DNA of 64,000 nucleotides, from NCBI GenBank assembly GCA_000146045.2, contig BK006942.2:192001-256000 (forward strand), given 5' to 3'. Every line of letters starts with the position of its first letter. The first letter of the stretch is position 1. The position numbers and the translations under genes were made by a program. Origin of the DNA: TPA_inf: Saccharomyces. Its lineage: Eukaryota. Below are positions 50,761 to 59,913 of the stretch, piece by piece. The notes under the pieces are model-generated. The model searched no databases and was not told the DNA's origin. It saw only the letters and a program-made list of their open reading frames with translations.

Positions 50761-51744
50761 TTATTTAGGAACGGATTTAACTATAATGTTATACAATTCA
50801 TCCGTGGTTTCCTTCTTACCAGTCTTTATGGCGTACTGTGCAGGATCACCGTTATCATCTACTGCTAGTAATCTTATGAATTTTTCGCTTTGCAAAGAAC
50901 CTGTAAATCCTTTTTGCACAGTGAACCCCTTGACCAGTTGGATGTTTAAAATGACTTTTAAGATACCACGAGACCTCATAACAATACGCGTCTTCTCGAC
51001 GTCGTCCTTACTTTTATTGATTTTGATGATACCAACACCTCTTTCCTTCCAGCCTTCTTTTATGTTGGAAAGTTGGTACAGCTTCGCATTGACTTGATAT
51101 ATGCACTCCTCAGACTCTTCACCAGACTTGACTTCCTGTTTCTGCAATTTGAGGGGTTTTGGTTTGTCTTTTGTATCTTCTGAGGCATTCGCTAGTTGTT
51201 CAGATCCACTATGGACTTTATCTTTGTCAACATCAGTAGCTTTCTTTTCACTTTCAGAGTTATTTTCTGTTTTGTTTTTCAGTATGTTGAAGCCGCTGCC
51301 AAATGATAAACCTGAACCAAATGCAAATGGCTTCTTTGTTTTGCTGTCAGAGGCTGGTAAACTTTCAGTACTGGTAGTTGCATCTCCATCTTTCGTGTCC
51401 TTTTTGGCAACACCAAACCCAGTTCCAAATTTAGATGCGGCACCAAACACGAATTTATCCTCCTTTTTGTCATCTTCCACAATACCAGATTCTACGGTCT
51501 TTCCGTCGTCAACCTTGATCTTCTTATGCGATGGTTCTTGGTCTTTTTTACCTTCCTCCTTTTTCTCCTCATCATTTTTATTGGGTGCTTCTGATTTGTC
51601 ACTCGTTTCTTCCGCTTGTTCATCCTGATCTTTTTCCCTCGGTCTCTTAGGAGTTCCATCTAGTTTATCGATAGGATTTTCAACTGCAGTTTGTTTCACC
51701 TCAGAATTTTCCCTGGCTGCATTGCCACCATTGGTCTCACTCAT
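50761..51744 (-). CDS. YRB2: Nuclear Ran-binding protein with FG repeats and a C-terminal RanBD, 327 aa
   Basis: FxFG/FG repeats (FGFGVAKK, FAFGSGLSFGSGF, FVFGAASKFGTGF) followed by a Ran-binding domain. 327 aa matches YRB2 (YIL063C). Confidence 0.85.
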   Translation of the reverse strand: MSETNGGNAARENSEVKQTAVENPIDKLDGTPKRPREKDQDEQAEETSDKSEAPNKNDEEKKEEGKKDQEPSHKKIKVDDGKTVESGIVEDDKKEDKFVFGAASKFGTGFGVAKKDTKDGDATTSTESLPASDSKTKKPFAFGSGLSFGSGFNILKNKTENNSESEKKATDVDKDKVHSGSEQLANASEDTKDKPKPLKLQKQEVKSGEESEECIYQVNAKLYQLSNIKEGWKERGVGIIKINKSKDDVEKTRIVMRSRGILKVILNIQLVKGFTVQKGFTGSLQSEKFIRLLAVDDNGDPAQYAIKTGKKETTDELYNIIVKSVPK

Positions 51745-51997
51745 GCTCTCAAAGTTTATGCGTACTTGTTTTGTGCAAATTGATTTGTTGACATTTTGGT
51801 TTGAGTAGCAACTGAGCTTTTTAAAATCCAGGCATTTATATCTTCAACCTCGCCAAACAATGTCAATTTTTTTAAAAAAAAACTCAATACCTACATCACC
51901 GCGAAATGCCTGAAGTAAAAGCATATAACAAACGCGACCCTTAAAATTACGTATATATATGTATATTTCTTTATACTAAGTTTTACTGGGCAGAGTA

Positions 51998-52462
51998 TCA
52001 TACAGTTCTTCTATCCGATATATAATGAACGATAGGTGTGACACCACTGACTTGAGTAATTCTTTCCAGCCACGCAAGCAAGACACCCCCTTGTTTCTGG
52101 CCCTGAGGTACGGACATTCCTTTGTAGAGATACTTTACCAGCACGTCCCTCTGAGAATCACTCAAATTTTTGATTACATTACCAATATCGGCTTGCCTGA
52201 CTTGTGTCAATGCTTCAAGGACGCTCTTAAAATATTGCTCCTTTGTTGGAGCATCTGCACTGTATGGAGGATCGGTTGTGAGTAATTGAACGGCTCCCAA
52301 AGAGTCACCACTTGTGGCAAGCGAGCGCAATTGATTCATTCGAGGTTGTAATTCTTGTAATGTGACAGTAGTTTCGTATGGTGGTACCAGATCGGCAGCG
52401 GTTAGTCTGCCACTCTCTGGATCAAATGCATCGATGTCAATTCTCCTCCAATCGGCTTCCAT
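51998..52462 (-). CDS. ARC15: Arp2/3 complex 16-kDa subunit (ARPC5), 154 aa
   Basis: 154-aa ARPC5-family ORF matching ARC15 (YIL062C). Confidence 0.8.
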   Translation of the reverse strand: MEADWRRIDIDAFDPESGRLTAADLVPPYETTVTLQELQPRMNQLRSLATSGDSLGAVQLLTTDPPYSADAPTKEQYFKSVLEALTQVRQADIGNVIKNLSDSQRDVLVKYLYKGMSVPQGQKQGGVLLAWLERITQVSGVTPIVHYISDRRTV

Positions 52463-52656
52463 TGCTTGATCGTTCGCGTGTGTTGTGTTGAGTCTTCTCT
52501 GGTCTCCTTTGCTATAGTATCTTGTGTTAAATGCGGGCTGTTTTTCTCTTATTTTGTTATAGGGGCAAAGTCTGAGAAAGGGAAAAAAGTATCCAAATTA
52601 ACTGATGTGCGGGTAATCATAGACAACAAGTAGCAGAGTTTAAGTATTACTTATAT

Positions 52657-53559
52657 TCAATAGTCGGGCGCTTCTTTGGGAGCTGGTTGAGACTCTCGAG
52701 TCCGTGAGTTTCTAGATTTATATACAGAAGTAACAGCAGCAGTAGGAGTGGCGGCGGAGAGCAATGGCCTGTTTCCACGGTACCTCGCGTCCAATGTGGA
52801 ACTGCCGTATCTATCAGCGCTATATGCGGAGGAAGAAGTTTCCCTGCGTGGCAGCCTGGGAGCATAATTTCTTTCGGCGGGATTTGATGTACTTGCGCTT
52901 GCAAACCTTCCTGGAAGCCTGCTGTCTCTGTTGGAATAGCCTCTGCCTCCTAGGCCGCCGCCCAATCTTCTTGGCTTGAAATATTTAACGGTTCTGCCTC
53001 TTTCTATGTCGACTATGCAGATTCTGTCTTTGATTTGGATACCTCTGTGTACTCCAATCTCCTTGAATGCCATTTTACTACTTATTGGGTCTTTGAAAAC
53101 TATGAAGGCGTAGCCTTTACTCTTCTGGGTTATCTTGTCCTTGACTATCCTAATTTTTTCGATCTCGCCAAACTTAACAAAATACTTTTGCAGTTCAATT
53201 TCGTCAAGATCGTATGGTAGCCTCCCAATAAATATCGTTCTGTAGGGATCTGTGTCCTTGATATGAGGGTCAACGTTAGGATTCCAATTTTGTAGTCTCC
53301 GGTCTAACAATTGAGCATTTTTGATCTTGGAAAGTTTGATGTCTTCGTATCTTTGGAGATGGTTGTTTGGAGATCCTTCAGGAAACTCCTCCATATAGTG
53401 CTTCAAAGAGGTTGATAGTAAGTTTGCAACGCCAGTGATATTTGGATTTGTTTGTCTCTTCGCATATGGGTAATCGGTTGGTCTTTTGTAAGATAAAGGT
53501 GGCCTTGGCTTGAAAAGTCTCGACACGTCGTCTGGATACTTGGATAGATTATAATTCAT
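52657..53559 (-). CDS. SNP1: U1 snRNP 70K protein (RRM), 300 aa
   Basis: U1-70K N-terminal region plus RRM with RNP2 IFIGRL and RNP1 KGYAFIVF, and an RG/RS-like basic tail. 300 aa from the second ATG matches SNP1 (YIL061C). Confidence 0.85.
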   Translation of the reverse strand: MNYNLSKYPDDVSRLFKPRPPLSYKRPTDYPYAKRQTNPNITGVANLLSTSLKHYMEEFPEGSPNNHLQRYEDIKLSKIKNAQLLDRRLQNWNPNVDPHIKDTDPYRTIFIGRLPYDLDEIELQKYFVKFGEIEKIRIVKDKITQKSKGYAFIVFKDPISSKMAFKEIGVHRGIQIKDRICIVDIERGRTVKYFKPRRLGGGLGGRGYSNRDSRLPGRFASASTSNPAERNYAPRLPRRETSSSAYSADRYGSSTLDARYRGNRPLLSAATPTAAVTSVYKSRNSRTRESQPAPKEAPDY

Positions 53560-54180
53560 CAAGGTTGAGGTGCCGATTACTTTTTTAAGGTTTCCTTTCG
53601 ACAGTCGATGACCGTGCTGTGTGTCATTATCTTGCAGTTCTTTTTTTCTTCAGATGCGTTAATTTCCTACGAAGGGCGCATACAATGGTGCTGATGGGAT
53701 TTATGAGCAAAACAAGTAGGCGAGCAAGACATGAACGAAATTGTAATGAAGCGTACTTCCTTTTCCCTACAACCTTAAAAAGGTCTCACTGATATATCCA
53801 TTCGCAATAATGACAAGATTTTTGCATGGGACTTCTTTTTTTCTTTTGAATAAGTCGCGTTATAAGGACAAAACATTAAAAAAAAATATGTATTGATTCA
53901 CTGATTTATATATACAGAAGTAAGTACCGGGGTACCTAAATATACGCATAAAAGTCTCTTTCTTTTTTTTTTTTTTTTTTTTAGCTTCCTACATTTCGTT
54001 AATAATATTATATAGATTATATTTATATTTAAGAAAAGTAATATCAGCATATTATGAATAGACAAAAAAGTCTAAGGTCAAGATTTATTAAATGTTAGAT
54101 TATTAAGATTACAATTAACAACATTTGTTGTTACTTCATAAAATTTCGTTACTTCATAAAAGAACTACAGTCCCCCACTT

Positions 54181-54219
54181 CTAAATGAGTGGTTGTAGGG
54201 GTTCATATACCTCCCATAC
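54181..54219 (-). pseudogene. Relic of the last 12 codons plus stop of an RGI2-like gene (VWEVYEPLQPLI*), part of a diverged duplicate of the RGI2 3' region
   Basis: The reverse complement GTATGGGAGGTATATGAACCCCTACAACCACTCATTTAG translates to ...EPLQPLI-stop, matching the Rgi2 C-terminus (...DVDYKTEPLQPLI*). Of the 600 bp below it, 53590-54180 aligns with the region 3' of RGI2 at 55430-55900. Confidence 0.55.
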
Positions 54220-54552
54220 TGTTGGAATAAAAATCAACTATCATCTACTAACTAGTATTTACGTTACTAGTATATTATCATATACGGTGTTAGAAGATGA
54301 CGCAAATGATGAGAAATAGTCATCTAAATTAGTGGAAGCTGAAACGCAAGGATTGATAATGTAATAGGATCAATGAATATTAACATATAAAATGATGATA
54401 ATAATATTTATAGAATTGTGTAGAATTGCAGATTCCCTTTTATGGATTCCTAAATCCTCGAGGAGAACTTCTAGTACATTCTACATACCTAATATTATTG
54501 CCTTATTAAAAATGGAATCCCAACAATTATCTCAAAATTCACCAACTCTTCA
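54220..54552 (+). repeat. Solo Ty1 delta LTR (333 bp) with a perfect 5-bp target-site duplication CATAC
   Basis: TGTTGGAATAAAAATCAACTATCATCTACTAACTAG...GAGGAGAACTTCTAG...AATGGAATCCCAACAATTATCTCAAAATTCACCAACTCTTCA. CATAC lies at 54215-54219 and 54553-54557. It contains the Ty1 TYA initiation codon (MESQQLSQ...). Confidence 0.9.
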
Positions 54553-54826
54553 CATACATACCTGCGGTAGCAAGATAGGTACACTTTTTCTACGTTTCAC
54601 GAAGGTAGCGATAGGTACCTCACTCATTGTAGGTGCGGGGGTAGCGATGGAGGTTTCTGTACCATTACCACCACAGCCACTATACTCACGTAGTGAAGTC
54701 CCTAGCGTGGAATTGTGTGGTATCGTTGCTATCTGTCGTTCGCCACCCTCGGTATATCCAACGTGCAGGCCAATATCACTCTCTAAGAAAATCGTATCAG
54801 GATTGGTACGGACAAACTCTTCATAG
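54392..54826 (+). CDS. Small ORF (144 aa) initiating inside the solo delta LTR and reading out into flanking DNA. Corresponds to YIL060W (reported mitochondrial protein of unknown function)
   Basis: The ORF begins at 54392 within the delta and includes the Ty1 Gag start [17 protein letters not shown] at 54512. The remainder is non-Ty sequence. 144 aa matches YIL060W. Confidence 0.45.
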
Positions 54827-55901
54827 CCTACGTCGAAATCAAATTCTGCTAAAGCTGTGACTGTAGTTAAACCTAAAACCGCGATTATTGCTTGAAAAAC
54901 TGTGGAGAAATTCATGATGGACGGTCACGTTCAGGGTCTGAGAAAACCACTCATTCCTATGTCCCATGTGGTTGGTTGCAATTTGCTGCTATATATACGA
55001 CTTGGCTGTAGAGAGATCTACGTAGGATGTGTCCACTATCAAGGGGGGTTTACCAACGTTATCTTCTATTTTAAGTGCTCAAATGAAGGTTGCATTATAT
55101 CCCTGGCAGTTTTCCCGGCAATTTTGCCGGCCGCTTATAATAGTCATGGTGAAAGGATTGTTGCTTGTTGTGGTTGCAACATGACAGTTGCCTACTAACT
55201 AAATAATAATCAAAGTCAGTTTCTCAACAATGGAAAACCTGTTGTGACCTTATCGAAGTAACAACATCGTATAATAATTAATCTGGAAAAAATACCATAG
55301 TTACTGCCGATACAGGTCTACGTGACTTACTGACAAACAGACTGAGTGACTACGAGTCCAGAAATTTAGTATACCATATTGTCGCTTCTTCTTATAGCCC
55401 AGCTCCAGGTCTGGATACGGTTCTGTATAACTCGTTAAGGTTTAAGTGTCCGGCAATTTTTTTGAAGTTTCATTTCTTCACTCGATGACCAAGCCGTGTG
55501 CCATCTTTTCGTTTTCTTTTTTTTCAATGTGTTTAATTATCTACAAAGAGGGCACACACAATAGAGCTGATGAGAACCCATGAGCGAAACAAGTAGAAAA
55601 GCAAGACGTAAACGGAATCATGGTGGTGTGTACATTTCTCTTTTTTTATTACACCAAGAAAGCTTAATTGGTACGTATTGTTCGTGATAGTAGCATGAAT
55701 CTAGCGTGGAATTCTTTTATTTAAGGTCGCGTTGTGACGACAAAACATTAAAAAAACCACATGTGTTGATTTGTAGACTTGTATACACTCCAGTAAGAAG
55801 GTGCACACCAAAATACATGCGCATATAAATTATTTTATATAGCATGCTATATTTCGTAAATTCATAAAATTTCGTTAATTCATAAAAACAGCTCCCCAAA
55901 C

Positions 55902-56396
55902 TTAGATGAGTGGCTGCAAGGGTTCTGTCTTGTAATCAACATCTACCATTGCGCCATCGTGTTTACATACAACTTCGACAGACACCTTGAATTTCTTGGC
56001 GTTCAACTCCGTTTCTTCGCCATAATTCCAAACAATCCGGTCAAAGGATTCCTGCTTTTTCTTATCGTGGAATTTCAATTCTGGCTTGTTGATAGCGGTT
56101 TTGATGTCCTTTAGCAGGTGCTTCTCAACATGCTGGTGTAAATGGCGAACAAACTTCTTAGAGTGCGAATTGGCAGTCTCTTTGATCTTTTCCGGATCAT
56201 CATGCGCATCATGCAGGACAAAGGGTGGATAGTACTTCAGTTGGCAATGGACATGGTCGAACTCTTGATCTTCCGTCTCACCCTTTAAATATGTTTCAAA
56301 ATCATGCAAATCCTCAAAAACCTTTAAGGACTCACCACTTTTTGTAGTGATGGTGGACATCTTAGGACCCTTTGCTTTCTTATCCTTTTTCGTCAT
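55902..56396 (-). CDS. RGI2: Respiratory-growth-induced protein, 164 aa
   Basis: 164-aa ORF MTKKDKKAKGPKMSTITTKSGESLKVFEDLHDFETYLKGETEDQEF...KTEPLQPLI. Length and sequence match RGI2 (YIL057C). Confidence 0.85.
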   Translation of the reverse strand: MTKKDKKAKGPKMSTITTKSGESLKVFEDLHDFETYLKGETEDQEFDHVHCQLKYYPPFVLHDAHDDPEKIKETANSHSKKFVRHLHQHVEKHLLKDIKTAINKPELKFHDKKKQESFDRIVWNYGEETELNAKKFKVSVEVVCKHDGAMVDVDYKTEPLQPLI

Positions 56397-56849
56397 TCTT
56401 ATTATTTAAAATACTTTGTTATATACTGTACGTTGTTTCGTTTGCACTTAATCGTGTTTCGACAGATAGGTGAATCAAGATCTACCTTTACGCGAAAGAT
56501 ACGAAGAATTGAGAAGGAGGTGCAAGGGAAAAGGGCAATAGAGGATTGGGACAGCCGATGCTTATATACGGACGATTGCCAACCGCCGAAAAGGTTCAAG
56601 CCAAGAACAAAAAGTAGAGAGAATACCCCAACAATAGCATTTGATGGCTAAACGGCAGTGCCCGTTAATACTATTCAAATTATACCCCGCATTAATAATT
56701 CCTGTCCCTTTAGTCTCGTCCTTCAGCCGTATAGCCGCAAAACTTCGTTCAATGATTTCATGCCATCATTACACCGCGAGTCGTGGGTGCATTGTAGTTT
56801 ATTACGAAAAGTATCTACAATACTTGCTTAAATAACCTACATTGTTTTA

Positions 56850-56931
56850 GGCACTATGGCCGAGTGGTTAAGGCGACAGACTTGAAATCTGTTGGGCTCT
56901 GCCCGCGCTGGTTCAAATCCTGCTGGTGTCG
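56850..56931 (+). tRNA. tS(UGA): tRNA-Ser, anticodon UGA, 82 nt, long variable arm
   Basis: GGCACTATGGCCGAGTGGTTAAGGCGACAGACTTGAAATCTGTTGGGCTCTGCCCGCGCTGGTTCAAATCCTGCTGGTGTCG. Anticodon loop CTTGAAA (TGA), a type II variable arm, and a TTATTTTTTTATTTTT terminator. Confidence 0.9.
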
Positions 56932-57990
56932 TTATTTTTTTATTTTTATTTTTTTTTTATCGCTTACTGATTATCAGATATCTTCGACAGCCTCACACAG
57001 ATTGGTGATCACGCACCCATAATCATTTCTTCGGGCATGCTCCTATTAGCCACGGTTCGCAGAATAATCTGCGCGATGTTATTCACCAAGACCGTGGAGT
57101 CTCCTTTTCGGTGGGATCCGCTTATATCCGTATGCGTCGGTTGCTTTCTCGGGGAAAGGAAAAGGAGAAAGCCCGGATAACACGACACAAGAGTCATTCG
57201 TTATGCACGGACACAGGGAATCGTGCGGAGCCGGGGATAAGAGGCCGTGCTAATTTCCGCGGAACATCGGAATGCAGTGGACAAGTGCCCTGAGAACAAG
57301 CGGCGGGCGGGTAGCTGCCACGGAATAGGCGCCACGTTTCCGTGGGTGACTATGACTTTTGATCGATTCCATGTTGTTTTGCCCTGAATTCTGCGCCCCT
57401 CGGAGAAGTTTCTTTTCTTTTTTATCTCTTTTTCATCTCTGACCTTCGTTTCCTTTCATATAGACTACGCAGCAGAATCATGGCAGGAGCTATTAGCTGA
57501 GTGGGCAGATTACGTTTGCGCACTGTGCATTGTGACAGATTATATTTGCTTCGCTTCTCCCTCTTACTTCTTCAGCATAAGTGTAAGCCATATGTTCCCT
57601 GAAATCTTTCTACCGTCGTCTTCTCTTTTTTTTTTTTTTACTATAAATCAATGTGCTCTCTTCCATGATTCTTGCCTTTTGGATCTTCGGTACTTGTGTG
57701 GGTGAGAATGGTGTTATTGAGTCAATTCAGGTCAGCTTGGTTCAGTTCTAATCTAGCCCTTTCCCTACTATACAAATACTACTAGCCTTTTTTTTTCTCT
57801 CTCTTTCTCTATACCACTACCTCTTCCTCTTCCTTTTTTTTCTCTTCTTTTTCTATTGTCCCCATCGCATCTTAGCATAAACGCATCCGCATTCCCTTCC
57901 TACATTTTTCTTTTCTACTAGTTATAGCTTTAAAACCTTCTTTATTCTCTTTCTACCTATTCTTCTTCGTTGCTTATATCCTATACACAT

Positions 57991-59913
57991 ATGAACGGTC
58001 CTCCAACATTCACTCAATATAGAATAAATAAGTTTTCTGGGAATGGAGCAACTCATAAGATTAGAGAATTACTCAATTTTAATGATGAAAAGAAATGGAA
58101 ACAGTTTTCGAGCAGAAGGCTGGAGCTGATAGACAAATTCCAACTAAGTCAATATAAGGCAAGCGAACAAGATCAAAACATAAAGCAGATTGCTACAATA
58201 TTAAGAACGGAGTTTGGATACCCTGTAAGCTGCTCTAAGGAATTCGAAAAGTTAGTCACTGCTGCTGTGCAATCAGTGAGAAGGAATAGAAAACGATCAA
58301 AAAAACGCTACGCTCTCAGCATAGCCAATGGCAGTGGCGGCAATGTCAACAACAGCATCTCGTCAAATTCTACTTCTGACGACGAGATCTCTCCGTCGAT
58401 CTACCAGCGCTCCAATTCGGACTTCCTGCCTAGTTCTAATTATGCTGCAGATTTCCAGTTTTCAAACAAGTTCCAGCCTCTCATGAGTCACCAGAGTCAT
58501 AACGGAACCATTTTTCCAACCGTGGGCACCCAAAATGACTCATCTCCATCGGTTACTTCGACCCAACAAAAGTATAACGATATAGTCACCATGCTAGTGC
58601 ACGATCTTGTTACGAATGTCGTACCCCTATCAGAACAAGCTCTCAAGGACCCATATACTGGGCCAAACCTGTCACATTTTGCTACGTCTTCACTCAGCCA
58701 GCAACCTAACATTACCACAAACATCCCGATAGATTCTACCGTGCCATTTTTCCTGAGGGAAAAGTTACTCCTACAAATCCAAAGATCAAGAACTTGTCAG
58801 GACATTTCGCAGGCTGCAGGATCCATTGATATATACGCAAATCTGGAGATTTTGGGTGAAATGTCAATCCGAATGTCTATTGCATTCGTTATCGAACGAT
58901 TTTTCTCCAACTTGGTCTCTTCTTCAATGAAGTATATCACTGCCAAGACGTGCTCTCCTGAAAATCTGGCTTTGTTGTCTCAAAGACTGTTCGGTGCCGC
59001 TACAAGACATAACTTATCTCATTTCCCCGCGGCTCAGGTACAACTAAGGCTACTGTATTTGGTCATAGGTGGTATTGTCAAGGATTTTGGCTTCGACCCC
59101 ACGCTTTACCCTTTAAGTGAAATCATACATCATATTGTGATGGTTCAGTATCCTTTGGCTAGTTCCTGTGCGTCAGAACCACCATCATCTTCACCTAACA
59201 AGAGGGTTAAGAGAAGCCCTCCTGTCGTTTCAAGTGACGTTATGTTGAATAATAATAACACTCTATCGAATAGAGCTACACTTTTAACTACGCTACCAAT
59301 GAAGCCTCAATCGGCCAATAAAGATGTTAATCGCAGAGTGATCATTAGATTTAATGATCGCGAGCAAGCCTTTACTTTCCACCAGTTGAGCAATGGACCA
59401 CCCACGGTGTCTGAAGTTTTGGAAAACTGTAAAAATTTATTTAATATTATCAACAAGAACAAGAATTTTGGTATTTTCCATAACGATAACCTCTTGAACG
59501 ATGAAAGTTTGGCAAAGTTATTTGATTCCTTTTCCACGAGCGAGATTCATCTCGTAATTAAGGACATTTCCACCATTCCACTACAAGATGCAAAAATACC
59601 AGTGCCCATTACGTTGCCCAAAATGTCATGCATAGGTGAAAACCCCTCTATGCCTTCTATTCCATTGGTACCACAAGAAAAAGATGATCCAAAAAAATCA
59701 AGCTTAACTGCCTTTGATAACATCCTTAATAGGATCTCTAAATCGCCAATGAATGAAGAAAATAGCAACACTACTTTAAACACTGGCACCTCCACCTCCA
59801 ACACAAATAATAATGACCACAACGAGTCTGTGCCAGCGCCATACGTTACAAAGAACAAAAATTCTTTTCAAAATGGCAATTTACCACAGCCGGTTTTCCA
59901 GCCTTTACTTTGA
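57991..59913 (+). CDS. VHR1: Transcription factor (biotin/vitamin-H response), 640 aa from the internal ATG
   Basis: Starting at MNGPPTFTQYRINKFSGNGATHKIRELLNF gives 640 aa with an N-terminal DNA-binding region and S/N-rich low-complexity segments. This matches VHR1 (YIL056W). Confidence 0.8.
   Translation: MNGPPTFTQYRINKFSGNGATHKIRELLNFNDEKKWKQFSSRRLELIDKFQLSQYKASEQDQNIKQIATILRTEFGYPVSCSKEFEKLVTAAVQSVRRNRKRSKKRYALSIANGSGGNVNNSISSNSTSDDEISPSIYQRSNSDFLPSSNYAADFQFSNKFQPLMSHQSHNGTIFPTVGTQNDSSPSVTSTQQKYNDIVTMLVHDLVTNVVPLSEQALKDPYTGPNLSHFATSSLSQQPNITTNIPIDSTVPFFLREKLLLQIQRSRTCQDISQAAGSIDIYANLEILGEMSIRMSIAFVIERFFSNLVSSSMKYITAKTCSPENLALLSQRLFGAATRHNLSHFPAAQVQLRLLYLVIGGIVKDFGFDPTLYPLSEIIHHIVMVQYPLASSCASEPPSSSPNKRVKRSPPVVSSDVMLNNNNTLSNRATLLTTLPMKPQSANKDVNRRVIIRFNDREQAFTFHQLSNGPPTVSEVLENCKNLFNIINKNKNFGIFHNDNLLNDESLAKLFDSFSTSEIHLVIKDISTIPLQDAKIPVPITLPKMSCIGENPSMPSIPLVPQEKDDPKKSSLTAFDNILNRISKSPMNEENSNTTLNTGTSTSNTNNNDHNESVPAPYVTKNKNSFQNGNLPQPVFQPLL

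Follow-up and report, generated by a model that had tools for sequence, protein, structure and literature searches.

The SNP1 and RGI2 genes of Saccharomyces cerevisiae chromosome IX are separated by an interval in which two stretches resembling each other flank a solo delta and the small open reading frames YIL060W, YIL059C and YIL058W, raising the question of how this arrangement was assembled and where the DNA in its middle came from. A first-pass annotation of the 64,000-nucleotide stretch analysed here (the window, whose own coordinates are used throughout) had read the interval as an old local duplication of the RGI2 3' region, whose gene copy decayed and was later targeted by a Ty element. 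The analysis presented here leads us, with moderate confidence, to a different reading, in which the locus would be an old tandem duplication with a Ty-associated gene cassette captured at its junction. The kind of event is known, and so is the gene; a literature search for the SNP1-RGI2 duplication itself found no description of it. The features of the locus are listed in Table 1.

Table 1. Features of the SNP1-RGI2 locus, in window coordinates.
Feature	Position	Strand	Basis	Remarks
SNP1 (YIL061C) CDS	52657..53559	-	ORF list and translation	First codons bound copy A
Copy A, SNP1-proximal spacer copy	53560..54180	-	BLASTN and alignments	Present SNP1 upstream region
RGI2 relic (EPLQPLI*)	54181..54204	-	Sequence	Last 7 codons and stop
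X9 end (...GGGAGGTATA)	54206..54220	-	Allele and paralogue alignments	Delta lies between it and the X9 core
Solo delta LTR (Ty1/Ty2 type, TGTTGG...TCTTCA)	54221..54552	+	Sequence, empty sites	332 bp
X9 core	54553..55266	-	BLASTN	TATA box 54990-54997; YIL059C ORF 54550-54915
Piece of ~150 bp between SNP1 relic and X9	55267..55418	-	Alignments	Also in S. mikatae; not in the chromosome VII copy
SNP1 5'-end relic in copy B	55419..55435	-	Alignments	Remnant of a relic ~330 nt long
Copy B, RGI2-proximal spacer copy	55436..55901	-	BLASTN	RGI2 3' flank
RGI2 (YIL057C) CDS	55902..56396	-	ORF list	Intact version of the relic in the last 24 bases
tRNA-Ser(UGA)	56850..56931	+	ARAGORN and Rfam	Context: Pol III gene, upstream side a Ty landing zone

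The duplicated spacer and its gene relics

Copies A (53530-54205) and B (55409-55925) are homologous, collinear direct repeats with 66-74% identity. Same-strand BLASTN alignments pair 53530-54003 with 55409-55879 (66.4% over 488 columns, E 1e-50) and 54123-54204 with 55849-55925 (74.4% over 82 columns, E 6e-12), and the Smith-Waterman score between the copies is 119, compared with 13.2 ± 1.6 for 200 dinucleotide shuffles (maximum 20; z = 65) and with a maximum of 23 for 34 other segments of the window. Elsewhere in the window, BLASTN found nothing similar to either copy. The diverged, same-orientation counterpart of the RGI2 3' region pointed out in the first-pass annotation thus stands far above shuffled sequence, but its left limit has to be moved, as the homology runs ~30-60 bp further left, where copy B has a relic of the beginning of SNP1. 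The repeat unit, taken by that annotation to be the RGI2 3' region, is instead the entire RGI2-SNP1 spacer together with the adjoining ends of the two genes.

The two gene relics sit at the inner ends of the copies, facing the junction, and each gene kept one intact copy because the breakpoints fell inside both genes. Pfam searches place SNP1 orthologues in U1snRNP70_N/RRM and RGI2 homologues in the RGI1 family. At the inner end of copy A, the relic reads GAA CCC CTA CAA CCA CTC ATT TAG, against GAA CCC TTG CAG CCA CTC ATC TAA in RGI2. The relic is in frame, as previously noted, but comprises seven codons and a stop instead of the twelve codons initially counted, the next five "codons" (54205-54219) being part of the cassette described below. 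Its EPLQPLI tail is of the RGI2 type and does not match that of the chromosome V paralogue RGI1, which ends in ...KTHPVGAN. All five base differences between relic and RGI2 are silent (simulated P ~0.0004-0.0015 for random changes), a pattern that would be unexpected in a sequence that had been non-coding since an ancient duplication.

In the SNP1 relic of copy B, codons 1-3 are fused to codon ~108, and the start codon has changed from ATG to ACG in this strain while remaining intact in others. The S. mikatae relic is longer, reaching up to SNP1 codon ~110 (TBLASTN E 2e-13). The segment GTATCCAGAC in copy B was first read as SNP1 codons 8-11; comparison by way of S. mikatae accounts for it better as the sequence that follows codon ~108 after an internal deletion, and the first reading was dropped.

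Divergence between copies A and B amounts to a K80 of 0.38-0.44. Copy A evolves fastest, having accumulated 57 unique changes where copy B has 21, and around 53960-54122 it contains a T23 run and ~125-155 additional AT-rich bases that are missing from copy B and from the other species. The single S. paradoxus spacer is nearer to copy B (K80 0.23) than to copy A (0.36), and a comparison of distances places copy A near no sampled species. Distance trees and a four-point test hinted at copy A being a basal, pre-speciation lineage, an idea abandoned after polarisation of the unique sites with S. kudriavzevii revealed no surplus of ancestral states; copy A is mainly a long branch. Gene-conversion tracts between the spacer copies are visible in S. 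cerevisiae.

The X cassette and the origin of YIL059C

According to the first-pass annotation, RGI2 was duplicated together with its downstream region and the extra gene body decayed, leaving a C-terminal relic. The in-frame RGI2 tail at the end of copy A agrees with such a history, but neither DNA nor protein comparisons reveal any resemblance to RGI2 or SNP1 in the 0.85 kb that separates the copies: TBLASTN (word size 2) and BLASTN (word size 7) yielded only chance matches to the bodies of both genes in 54556-55420, whereas the non-coding copies on either side have retained 66-74% identity. The relic is bordered by bases of a cassette, and the interval is homologous to DNA on chromosome VII and at a third locus, which already refutes the decay of a gene copy in place. 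We therefore consider this explanation extremely improbable.

This cassette, designated X9, matches a paralogue in the MTC3-VRG4 interval of S. cerevisiae chromosome VII (X7; L004, L005 and L014) with 75-79% identity in BLASTN searches, and a third locus (L017), situated upstream of a tRNA gene, with 64-70% identity. X7 was identified on chromosome VII in 7 S. cerevisiae assemblies, and one assembly contains both X copies. With a K80 of 0.28-0.30, X9 and X7 have diverged to an extent comparable to copies A and B, and conversion tracts between X9 and X7 are visible. What X9, X7 and S. mikatae have in common includes the TATA box and extends ~350 bp upstream of the ATG. The X copies adjoin LTRs or tRNA genes, and a search for a duplication flanking X7 on chromosome VII found none.

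These surroundings bear on whether the duplication and the insertion were separate events, with a plain tandem duplication of the spacer and gene ends coming first and the X cassette arriving later, with or near a Ty element, at or near the junction. The site lies upstream of tRNA-Ser, where Ty elements integrate, an old LTR fragment directly adjoins the cassette in a Chinese-lineage allele and in S. mikatae, and a second, recent delta is found in the same 1-kb stretch; X copies elsewhere, moreover, adjoin LTRs or tRNA genes without a flanking duplication. Against this sequence of events, the duplication never occurs without the insert among the genomes examined, and the cassette lies exactly between the gene relics and not within a spacer copy. 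We regard a two-step origin as unlikely, and favour capture of the cassette at the junction of the duplication.

Ty-mediated retrosequences, which are processed gene copies embedded in Ty cDNA, resemble the Chinese-lineage allele, in which the cassette ORF is followed by ~70 nt, an A31 run and an LTR fragment. This succession is restricted to that allele, with a deletion at this point in S. mikatae and no A run in X7. The cassette differs from retrosequences in that its own TATA box and conserved upstream DNA, 350 bp in length, also occur in the chromosome VII copy. An mRNA-derived copy would be without such upstream sequence, which speaks against a processed retrogene.

YIL059C, the cassette ORF, has a dN/dS of 0.16-0.34 and a paralogue with 77% identity on chromosome VII; the homologous ORFs at the two other loci have values of 0.24-0.34, with no stop codon in L017. 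Given these homologous ORFs, YIL059C is not a de novo product of this site but belongs to a small family maintained by selection, and has been relocated here. An HMMER search with YIL059C against 1.8 billion representative proteins returned only Saccharomyces-type short ORFs and one weak repetitive match, and Pfam searches with YIL059C, YIL060W, YIL058W and the paralogous ORFs gave no match. No RNA gene other than tRNA-Ser was detected over 51000-58500 with Rfam (E <= 1), and ARAGORN gave the same result.

YIL059C is translated, has been observed by mass spectrometry and has its signal peptide cleaved (Wacholder and Carvunis, 2023; PMC10721188), and its SGD status became Verified in 2024 (PMC11430078). 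The suggestion that the duplication explains an interval filled with dubious ORFs is consequently not supported for YIL059C, nor for YIL060W, which needs the delta to exist. Wacholder and Carvunis (2023) described YIL059C as a young protein-coding gene adjoining a Ty LTR and proposed its transposon-mediated horizontal transfer before the split of S. cerevisiae and S. mikatae. Our results agree with theirs on the DNA homologues in S. mikatae, the broken S. mikatae ORF and the adjacent Ty sequence; the duplicated spacer, the gene relics, the S. cerevisiae chromosome VII paralogue, the two haplotypes and the conversion tracts do not feature in that work.

Delta insertion, haplotypes and other species

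The solo delta is a recent polymorphic insertion. It is flanked by a CATAC target duplication (54216-54220 and 54553-54557), is 95.8% identical to another delta on chromosome VII, and is missing from three S. cerevisiae assemblies (including L009 and L018) that have an empty site with a single CATAC, confirming the earlier description of a solo delta with an intact duplication left by a later Ty insertion. Its length (~330 bp), TG...CA ends, 5-bp target duplication, strain polymorphism and location upstream of a tRNA gene are those of a Ty1/Ty2 solo LTR, with nothing unusual in this instance; its distance of 2.3 kb from the tRNA is due solely to the earlier expansion of the interval. The end of X9 on the far side of the delta was placed by aligning delta-less alleles, the Chinese-lineage allele, S. 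mikatae and the chromosome VII paralogue. The stop codon of YIL059C consists of the last three bases of the delta, and the reference protein is truncated by the insertion. YIL060W starts within the delta and is therefore impossible in delta-less strains; given that its start codon needs a polymorphic element, yil060w deletion phenotypes most likely belong to YIL059C. Respiratory and glycogen phenotypes have been reported for this pair of ORFs.

The proposal of an old local duplication is borne out by the homology of the direct copies and by the single, insert-free spacer of S. paradoxus CBS432 and a second S. paradoxus lineage (457 and 478 bp), S. kudriavzevii (476 bp) and S. uvarum (509 bp). 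S. paradoxus CBS432 has no X homologue at either the SNP1-RGI2 or the chromosome VII locus. The event was first read as specific to S. cerevisiae, until the insert was found at the same place in S. mikatae, with the same left junction (...CAGAACC/GTATCC...). SNP1 of S. mikatae IFO1815 is S. paradoxus-like (96% identity, with 92% at third codon positions versus ~70% in neighbouring genes), so gene flow may take the place of shared descent followed by loss in S. paradoxus. This resemblance also explains why SNP1 of one genome (L010) clusters with the S. mikatae protein; L010 was initially taken for S. mikatae on that basis and is a diverged S. paradoxus lineage.

Within S. cerevisiae there are two old structural haplotypes at the locus. 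Copy A is complete but very diverged in the reference type, whose right junction stems from a secondary deletion, for it lacks the cassette tail found in the Chinese-lineage allele, S. mikatae and X7. In the other haplotype, the right junction has been replaced by an LTR fragment, and the Chinese-lineage allele and S. mikatae have in common the junction of this fragment with spacer position ~137. As neither haplotype kept the primary right junction, a one-step origin cannot be read from the junctions. Derivation of both haplotypes from one simple ancestor would seem to need either an old polymorphism or a third spacer copy.

The distribution of the insert could also reflect hybridisation or introgression, with the insert haplotype moving from the S. 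cerevisiae lineage to the S. mikatae lineage or the reverse, in which case the reference-type allele would have arisen on a haplotype lacking the insert, by fusion of the cassette to the 3' end of an RGI2 gene that was still functional. [quoted passage not shown] The S. paradoxus-like SNP1 of IFO1815 implies that interspecies exchange did occur at this locus, but the S. mikatae SNP1 relic has S. mikatae-type states, and copy A is close to no sampled species. Such a transfer would fit the exclusively silent changes in the RGI2 relic, would require no loss event in S. paradoxus, and is in line with the horizontal transfer likewise invoked by Wacholder and Carvunis (PMC10721188). On this mixed evidence we consider introgression possible but doubtful, and retain junctional capture, with the insert inherited or lost thereafter, as the preferred reading.

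Assembly of the locus and its implications

Under the preferred reading, at least 0.8 kb, from the last codons of RGI2 across the 460-bp spacer to about SNP1 codon 110, would have been duplicated in tandem, with ~1 kb of unrelated DNA placed at the junction. This DNA would have comprised the 150-bp piece and the X cassette, a small gene with its own TATA box whose product is the secreted protein YIL059C, and the truncated ends would have become the relics, with the tail of RGI2 in copy A and the beginning of SNP1 in copy B. Duplication and insertion were most likely a single repair or replication event, for instance template switching, or a joining of two staggered breaks in which a filler fragment was captured, and the cassette may have come from another genomic X copy within a Ty/tRNA landing zone. 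An integration of the Campbell type would lead to a similar product: a circle carrying X and a segment with the RGI2 3' end, the spacer and the SNP1 5' end would, by one crossover in the spacer, leave a direct repeat around the rest, as an integrating plasmid does. A repeat-cassette-repeat order with relics at the inner ends only is the exact product of a single crossover, yet we found no evidence of such a circle, nor of how X had joined the segment beforehand, and one more step is required than for junctional insertion, making this route improbable.

Following junctional capture, microhomology deletions would have shortened the SNP1 relic and an old LTR would have landed beside X, with further deletions producing the two structural haplotypes that are both extant in S. 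cerevisiae. Conversion tracts would have been swapped between the spacer copies and between X9 and X7. S. paradoxus would either have lost the insert through direct-repeat recombination or never have had it. Finally, in the lineage of the reference strain, the delta would have inserted 15 bp from the cassette end, cutting off the end of YIL059C and creating the start of the spurious antisense ORF YIL060W.

Tandem segmental duplications with inserts at their junctions arise by template switching, break-induced replication, or end joining with filler such as Ty cDNA or mitochondrial DNA, and are described in yeast double-strand-break repair and among human copy-number variants. The SNP1-RGI2 locus has in common with them two direct copies with breakpoints in unique sequence, unrelated DNA at the junction with a homologue elsewhere, intact flanking genes and truncated relics facing the junction. 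It differs in being small (~0.8 kb), old (K80 ~0.4) and heavily reworked, and the diagnostic microhomology is unreadable here because the primary right junction was lost.

A broader interpretation, which we put forward only tentatively and consider unlikely, is that X is an unrecognised mobile cassette of ~0.8 kb for a small secreted protein, kept by purifying selection, repeatedly relocated into Ty/tRNA landing zones (on chromosomes IX and VII and at the third site) and moving between Saccharomyces species. [quoted passage not shown]

The locus provides a compact natural case in which direct repeats drive later change, with conversion in both directions, a likely route to clean loss of the insert in S. 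paradoxus, and alternative deletions that persist as structural haplotypes. YIL059C is among the few yeast ORFs lately moved from dubious to verified, and its origin had stayed a matter of conjecture. The architecture of the duplication makes that origin concrete and testable, with the relics of the neighbouring genes serving as a dateable footprint.

The duplicated spacer and the relics at its ends

The spacer between SNP1 and RGI2 occurs twice in direct orientation, as a SNP1-proximal copy (copy A, ~53530-54205) and an RGI2-proximal copy (copy B, ~55409-55925). BLASTN aligned 53530-54003 with 55409-55879 (66.4% identity, 488 columns, E 1e-50) and 54123-54204 with 55849-55925 (74.4% identity, E 6e-12), and the globally aligned copies are 68% identical (K80 0.43). 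Their local alignment score was 119, compared with 13.2 +/- 1.6 for dinucleotide-preserving shuffles (n=200) and at most 23 for 34 other segments of the window. The two stretches paired as a diverged duplication in the first-pass annotation are thus homologous and collinear, but the homology does not stop at the edge of the spacer: in copy B it takes in a relic of the SNP1 5' end that had gone unreported.

Features of the SNP1-RGI2 interval and its surroundings (coordinates of the window, S. cerevisiae chromosome IX)
Feature	Position	Strand	Remark
ARC15	51998-52462	-	
SNP1	52657-53559	-	
X9 cassette	54206-54220 plus 54553-55266		
delta	54221-54552		CATAC on either side
YIL060W	54392-54826	+	begins within delta
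YIL059C	54550-54915		
150-bp piece	55267-55418		between copies, beside X9
RGI2	55902-56396	-	
tRNA-Ser(UGA)	56850-56931	+	
VHR1	start at 57970		

Copy B and all other species compared lack the ~125-155 additional AT-rich bases, with a T23 run, that copy A (~53960-54122) contains inside a short TATGAAnTAACGAAAT repeat. The reference-type copy A forms the longest branch, with 57 unique sites versus 21 in copy B. Four-point distances favor a basal position for copy A; its unique sites, polarized with S. kudriavzevii, show no surplus of ancestral states, and on this ground we read it as fast-evolving, not demonstrably basal.

The RGI2-like tail in copy A (54181-54204) is in frame, as first proposed, and reads EPLQPLI-stop. 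Its homology to RGI2 ends after seven codons, not twelve; the bases beyond it (…GGGAGGTATA, 54206-54220) are inserted DNA aligning with the Chinese-lineage allele, S. mikatae and the chromosome VII paralogue described below. All five base differences between this relic and RGI2 are silent (P about 0.0004-0.0015), a pattern suggesting that the relic remained coding for most of the time since it separated from RGI2. The reference strain has ACGAGTTATA at the SNP1-start relic of copy B (55426-55435), where other strains have ATGAGTTATA; the start codon of the relic (55433-55435) is ACG in the reference and an intact ATG in two other S. cerevisiae alleles (L006 and L009). The S. mikatae relic is longer and shows the former extent of the SNP1 relic: it retains SNP1 codons 1-7 together with codons ~74-110 (KNAYLLDRRLQNWNPNSNPHIKNTYPYRTV; tblastn E 2e-13; 83% DNA identity). 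The junction after SNP1 codon ~109 (…CAGAACC/GTATCC…) is common to both species, the relic having later been shortened by differing internal deletions, between two TCCAAG repeats in S. mikatae and between TA microhomologies in S. cerevisiae. The duplicated unit therefore ran from the RGI2 3' end across the whole spacer to ~nucleotide 330 of SNP1, at least 0.8 kb.

The inserted cassette, YIL059C and the delta

No similarity to RGI2 or SNP1 was seen in the 0.86 kb that separates the copies once the delta is excluded. This DNA consists of two parts, the 150-bp piece and X9, the chromosome IX copy of a cassette (X) carrying YIL059C. X9 is 75-79% identical to X7, a copy located between tRNA-Val(AAC)/MTC3 and VRG4; the proteins flanking X7 are identical to those of S. 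cerevisiae S288C, which places it on a native chromosome VII. X7 was found in seven independent S. cerevisiae-derived assemblies, one of which carries both X9 and X7, and X is missing from both loci in S. paradoxus CBS432. X7 shows no flanking duplication and lies within an S. cerevisiae-specific block of 2.25 kb (L014 3542-5796, MTC3-VRG4 interval) that adjoins two LTRs and is missing from S. paradoxus. In this block the X7 ORF has two in-frame stop codons, and another 1.2 kb besides X7 includes a 99-codon ORF. A third, more diverged copy (L017 1-1152, ENA assembly ERZ922845; 64-70% DNA identity) has an intact ORF with no stop codon (dN/dS 0.24, dS 0.8). This copy ends ~330 nt upstream of a putative tRNA start seen by eye (GTCCCAGTGGCCGAGTGGTTAAGGCG…, perhaps tRNA-Ser), within which the contig stops, and neither ARAGORN nor Rfam confirmed this incomplete sequence.

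Cassette X is a small gene. A TATA box ~75 nt upstream of the YIL059C start codon is conserved in X7 and S. mikatae, and dN/dS for the ORF is 0.16-0.34 across all comparisons, including L017. Searches of Pfam and of 1.8 billion representative proteins returned no homologues beyond these Saccharomyces-type sequences. YIL059C, placed at chrIX:246550-246915 (PMC10721188; offset to the window 192000), is translated, with 14 in-frame ribosome-profiling reads per codon versus 0.48 for the antisense YIL060W, and a mass-spectrometry peptide starts exactly at its predicted signal-peptide cleavage site (PMC10721188); its SGD status changed from Dubious to Verified in 2024 (PMC11430078). Our data and the literature agree that YIL059C is a real gene. 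The three known X copies lie in Ty/tRNA landing zones, next to LTRs or tRNA genes (the tRNA of L017 being putative), and this position suggests that the cassette travelled by a Ty-associated route. The promoter belongs to the copied unit, which makes a simple mRNA-derived retrocopy unlikely.

The delta is an ordinary solo LTR. The intact CATAC duplication attributed to it is present on both flanks, with a single CATAC at the empty site of the delta-less S. cerevisiae assemblies (L009, L018), and the annotated ORFs at the locus have been reshaped by it. In the window, YIL059C takes its stop codon from the delta, whose terminal TCA (54550-54552) supplies all three bases; the reference protein, 121 residues long, is therefore truncated, and the alleles of delta-less and Chinese-lineage strains give forms of 142 and 160 residues. 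As YIL060W begins inside this polymorphic element, delta-less strains have no YIL060W start codon.

Species distribution, structural haplotypes and exchange

The RGI2-SNP1 spacer is single (457-509 bp) in S. paradoxus CBS432, a second S. paradoxus lineage (L010), S. kudriavzevii and S. uvarum. In S. mikatae IFO1815 the interval spans 1761 bp: besides the SNP1 relic and the 150-bp piece, it contains X9, whose ORF is broken, a fragment of an old LTR and a truncated form of copy A. The duplication first noted in S. cerevisiae is therefore common to S. cerevisiae and S. mikatae and missing from S. paradoxus. Wacholder and Carvunis proposed an arrival before S. cerevisiae and S. mikatae split, with later loss in S. 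paradoxus (PMC10721188), and this distribution agrees with their view; recombination between the direct repeats would restore a clean single spacer. The SNP1 protein of L010 (Logan SRR10997049) clusters with that of S. mikatae, yet its coding DNA is 94-98% identical to CBS432, identifying it as a diverged S. paradoxus lineage and not S. mikatae.

Two arrangements segregate in S. cerevisiae. Copy A is full length in the reference type, represented by the window, L009 and L018, where it includes the RGI2 relic but the cassette tail is missing. In the Chinese-lineage type (L006-L008), the cassette is longer by 77 bases homologous to X7, an A31 run and an old LTR fragment are present, and copy A starts at spacer position ~137. 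The junction of LTR fragment and spacer is exactly the same in S. mikatae, which makes both arrangements old. In L006 (5441-5647), ~110 nt of unique sequence come after the cassette, then the A31 run, a further 60 nt and the LTR fragment; S. mikatae has lost this stretch by a deletion between two …GTGGC… repeats. The A31 run may be a poly(A) tail. The two haplotypes could, speculatively, be reconciled if their ancestor had three spacer copies and each then lost a different part by deletion between repeats.

Gene conversion is evident in S. cerevisiae. Within the Chinese-lineage allele, copies A and B are 91% identical over 366 bp, and copy B of L006 and L009 carries a copy-A-like tract of ~100-150 bp (window about 55440-55680) with 23-24 differences from the reference per 200 bp, against a background of 1-3. 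Polymorphic conversion between the spacer copies explains the clusters of 17-67 differences per 200 bp (background 1-3) separating reference and other S. cerevisiae alleles at about 55440-55680 and 53650-53885. In strain CFC, ~210 bp of X7 (L005 about 8090-8300) are identical to X9 (window about 54620-54850), where X7 of other strains is about 75% identical; this tract is an ectopic conversion between chromosomes and brings back an open 121-codon frame.

In the insert, S. cerevisiae and S. mikatae differ less than in neighboring neutral spacers (0.29-0.30), and this low divergence challenges a purely vertical history: the 150-bp piece gives 0.19-0.25, the LTR fragment 0.14, the non-coding 5' part of X9 0.13 and the ORF 0.07. 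Constraint on a functional gene accounts for part of the low cassette divergence, but not easily for the LTR fragment. S. mikatae IFO1815 and S. paradoxus share 96% identity in SNP1 (92% at third codon positions, versus about 70% in the adjacent VHR1, RGI2, ARC15 and YRB2); this ~1-kb chromosome IX tract of S. mikatae (L016 about 5957-6950) looks like an introgression or conversion from S. paradoxus, so inter-species exchange has taken place at the locus itself. Given this exchange, the low divergence and the silent changes in the RGI2 relic, introgression of an insert-bearing haplotype between species is a serious rival or complement to our main explanation.

Origin of the arrangement

The locus reads, in order, gene, spacer, 5' relic of the neighbor, foreign DNA, 3' relic of the gene, spacer, neighbor, the order that a tandem duplication would leave if DNA were captured where its copies join; such duplications are a well-known kind of event. 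Possible routes would be template switching during replication or break-induced replication, or staggered breaks on two chromatids joined with a filler fragment; the same picture would follow from one crossover with a circle that carried both the segment and X. The A-B (0.38-0.44) and X9-X7 (0.28-0.30) divergences are of similar order and compatible with one event. As the primary right junction is no longer preserved, duplication and capture in one step is what we infer.

The YIL059C gene and the idea of its transposon-assisted arrival were already published; the searchable literature yielded no account of the duplicated spacer and its relics of the two neighbors, nor of the paralogue on chromosome VII, the two structural haplotypes or the conversion tracts. 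These features flag consequences for the annotation of YIL059C and YIL060W, and turn the origin of YIL059C, a newly verified young gene, into a concrete, testable history.
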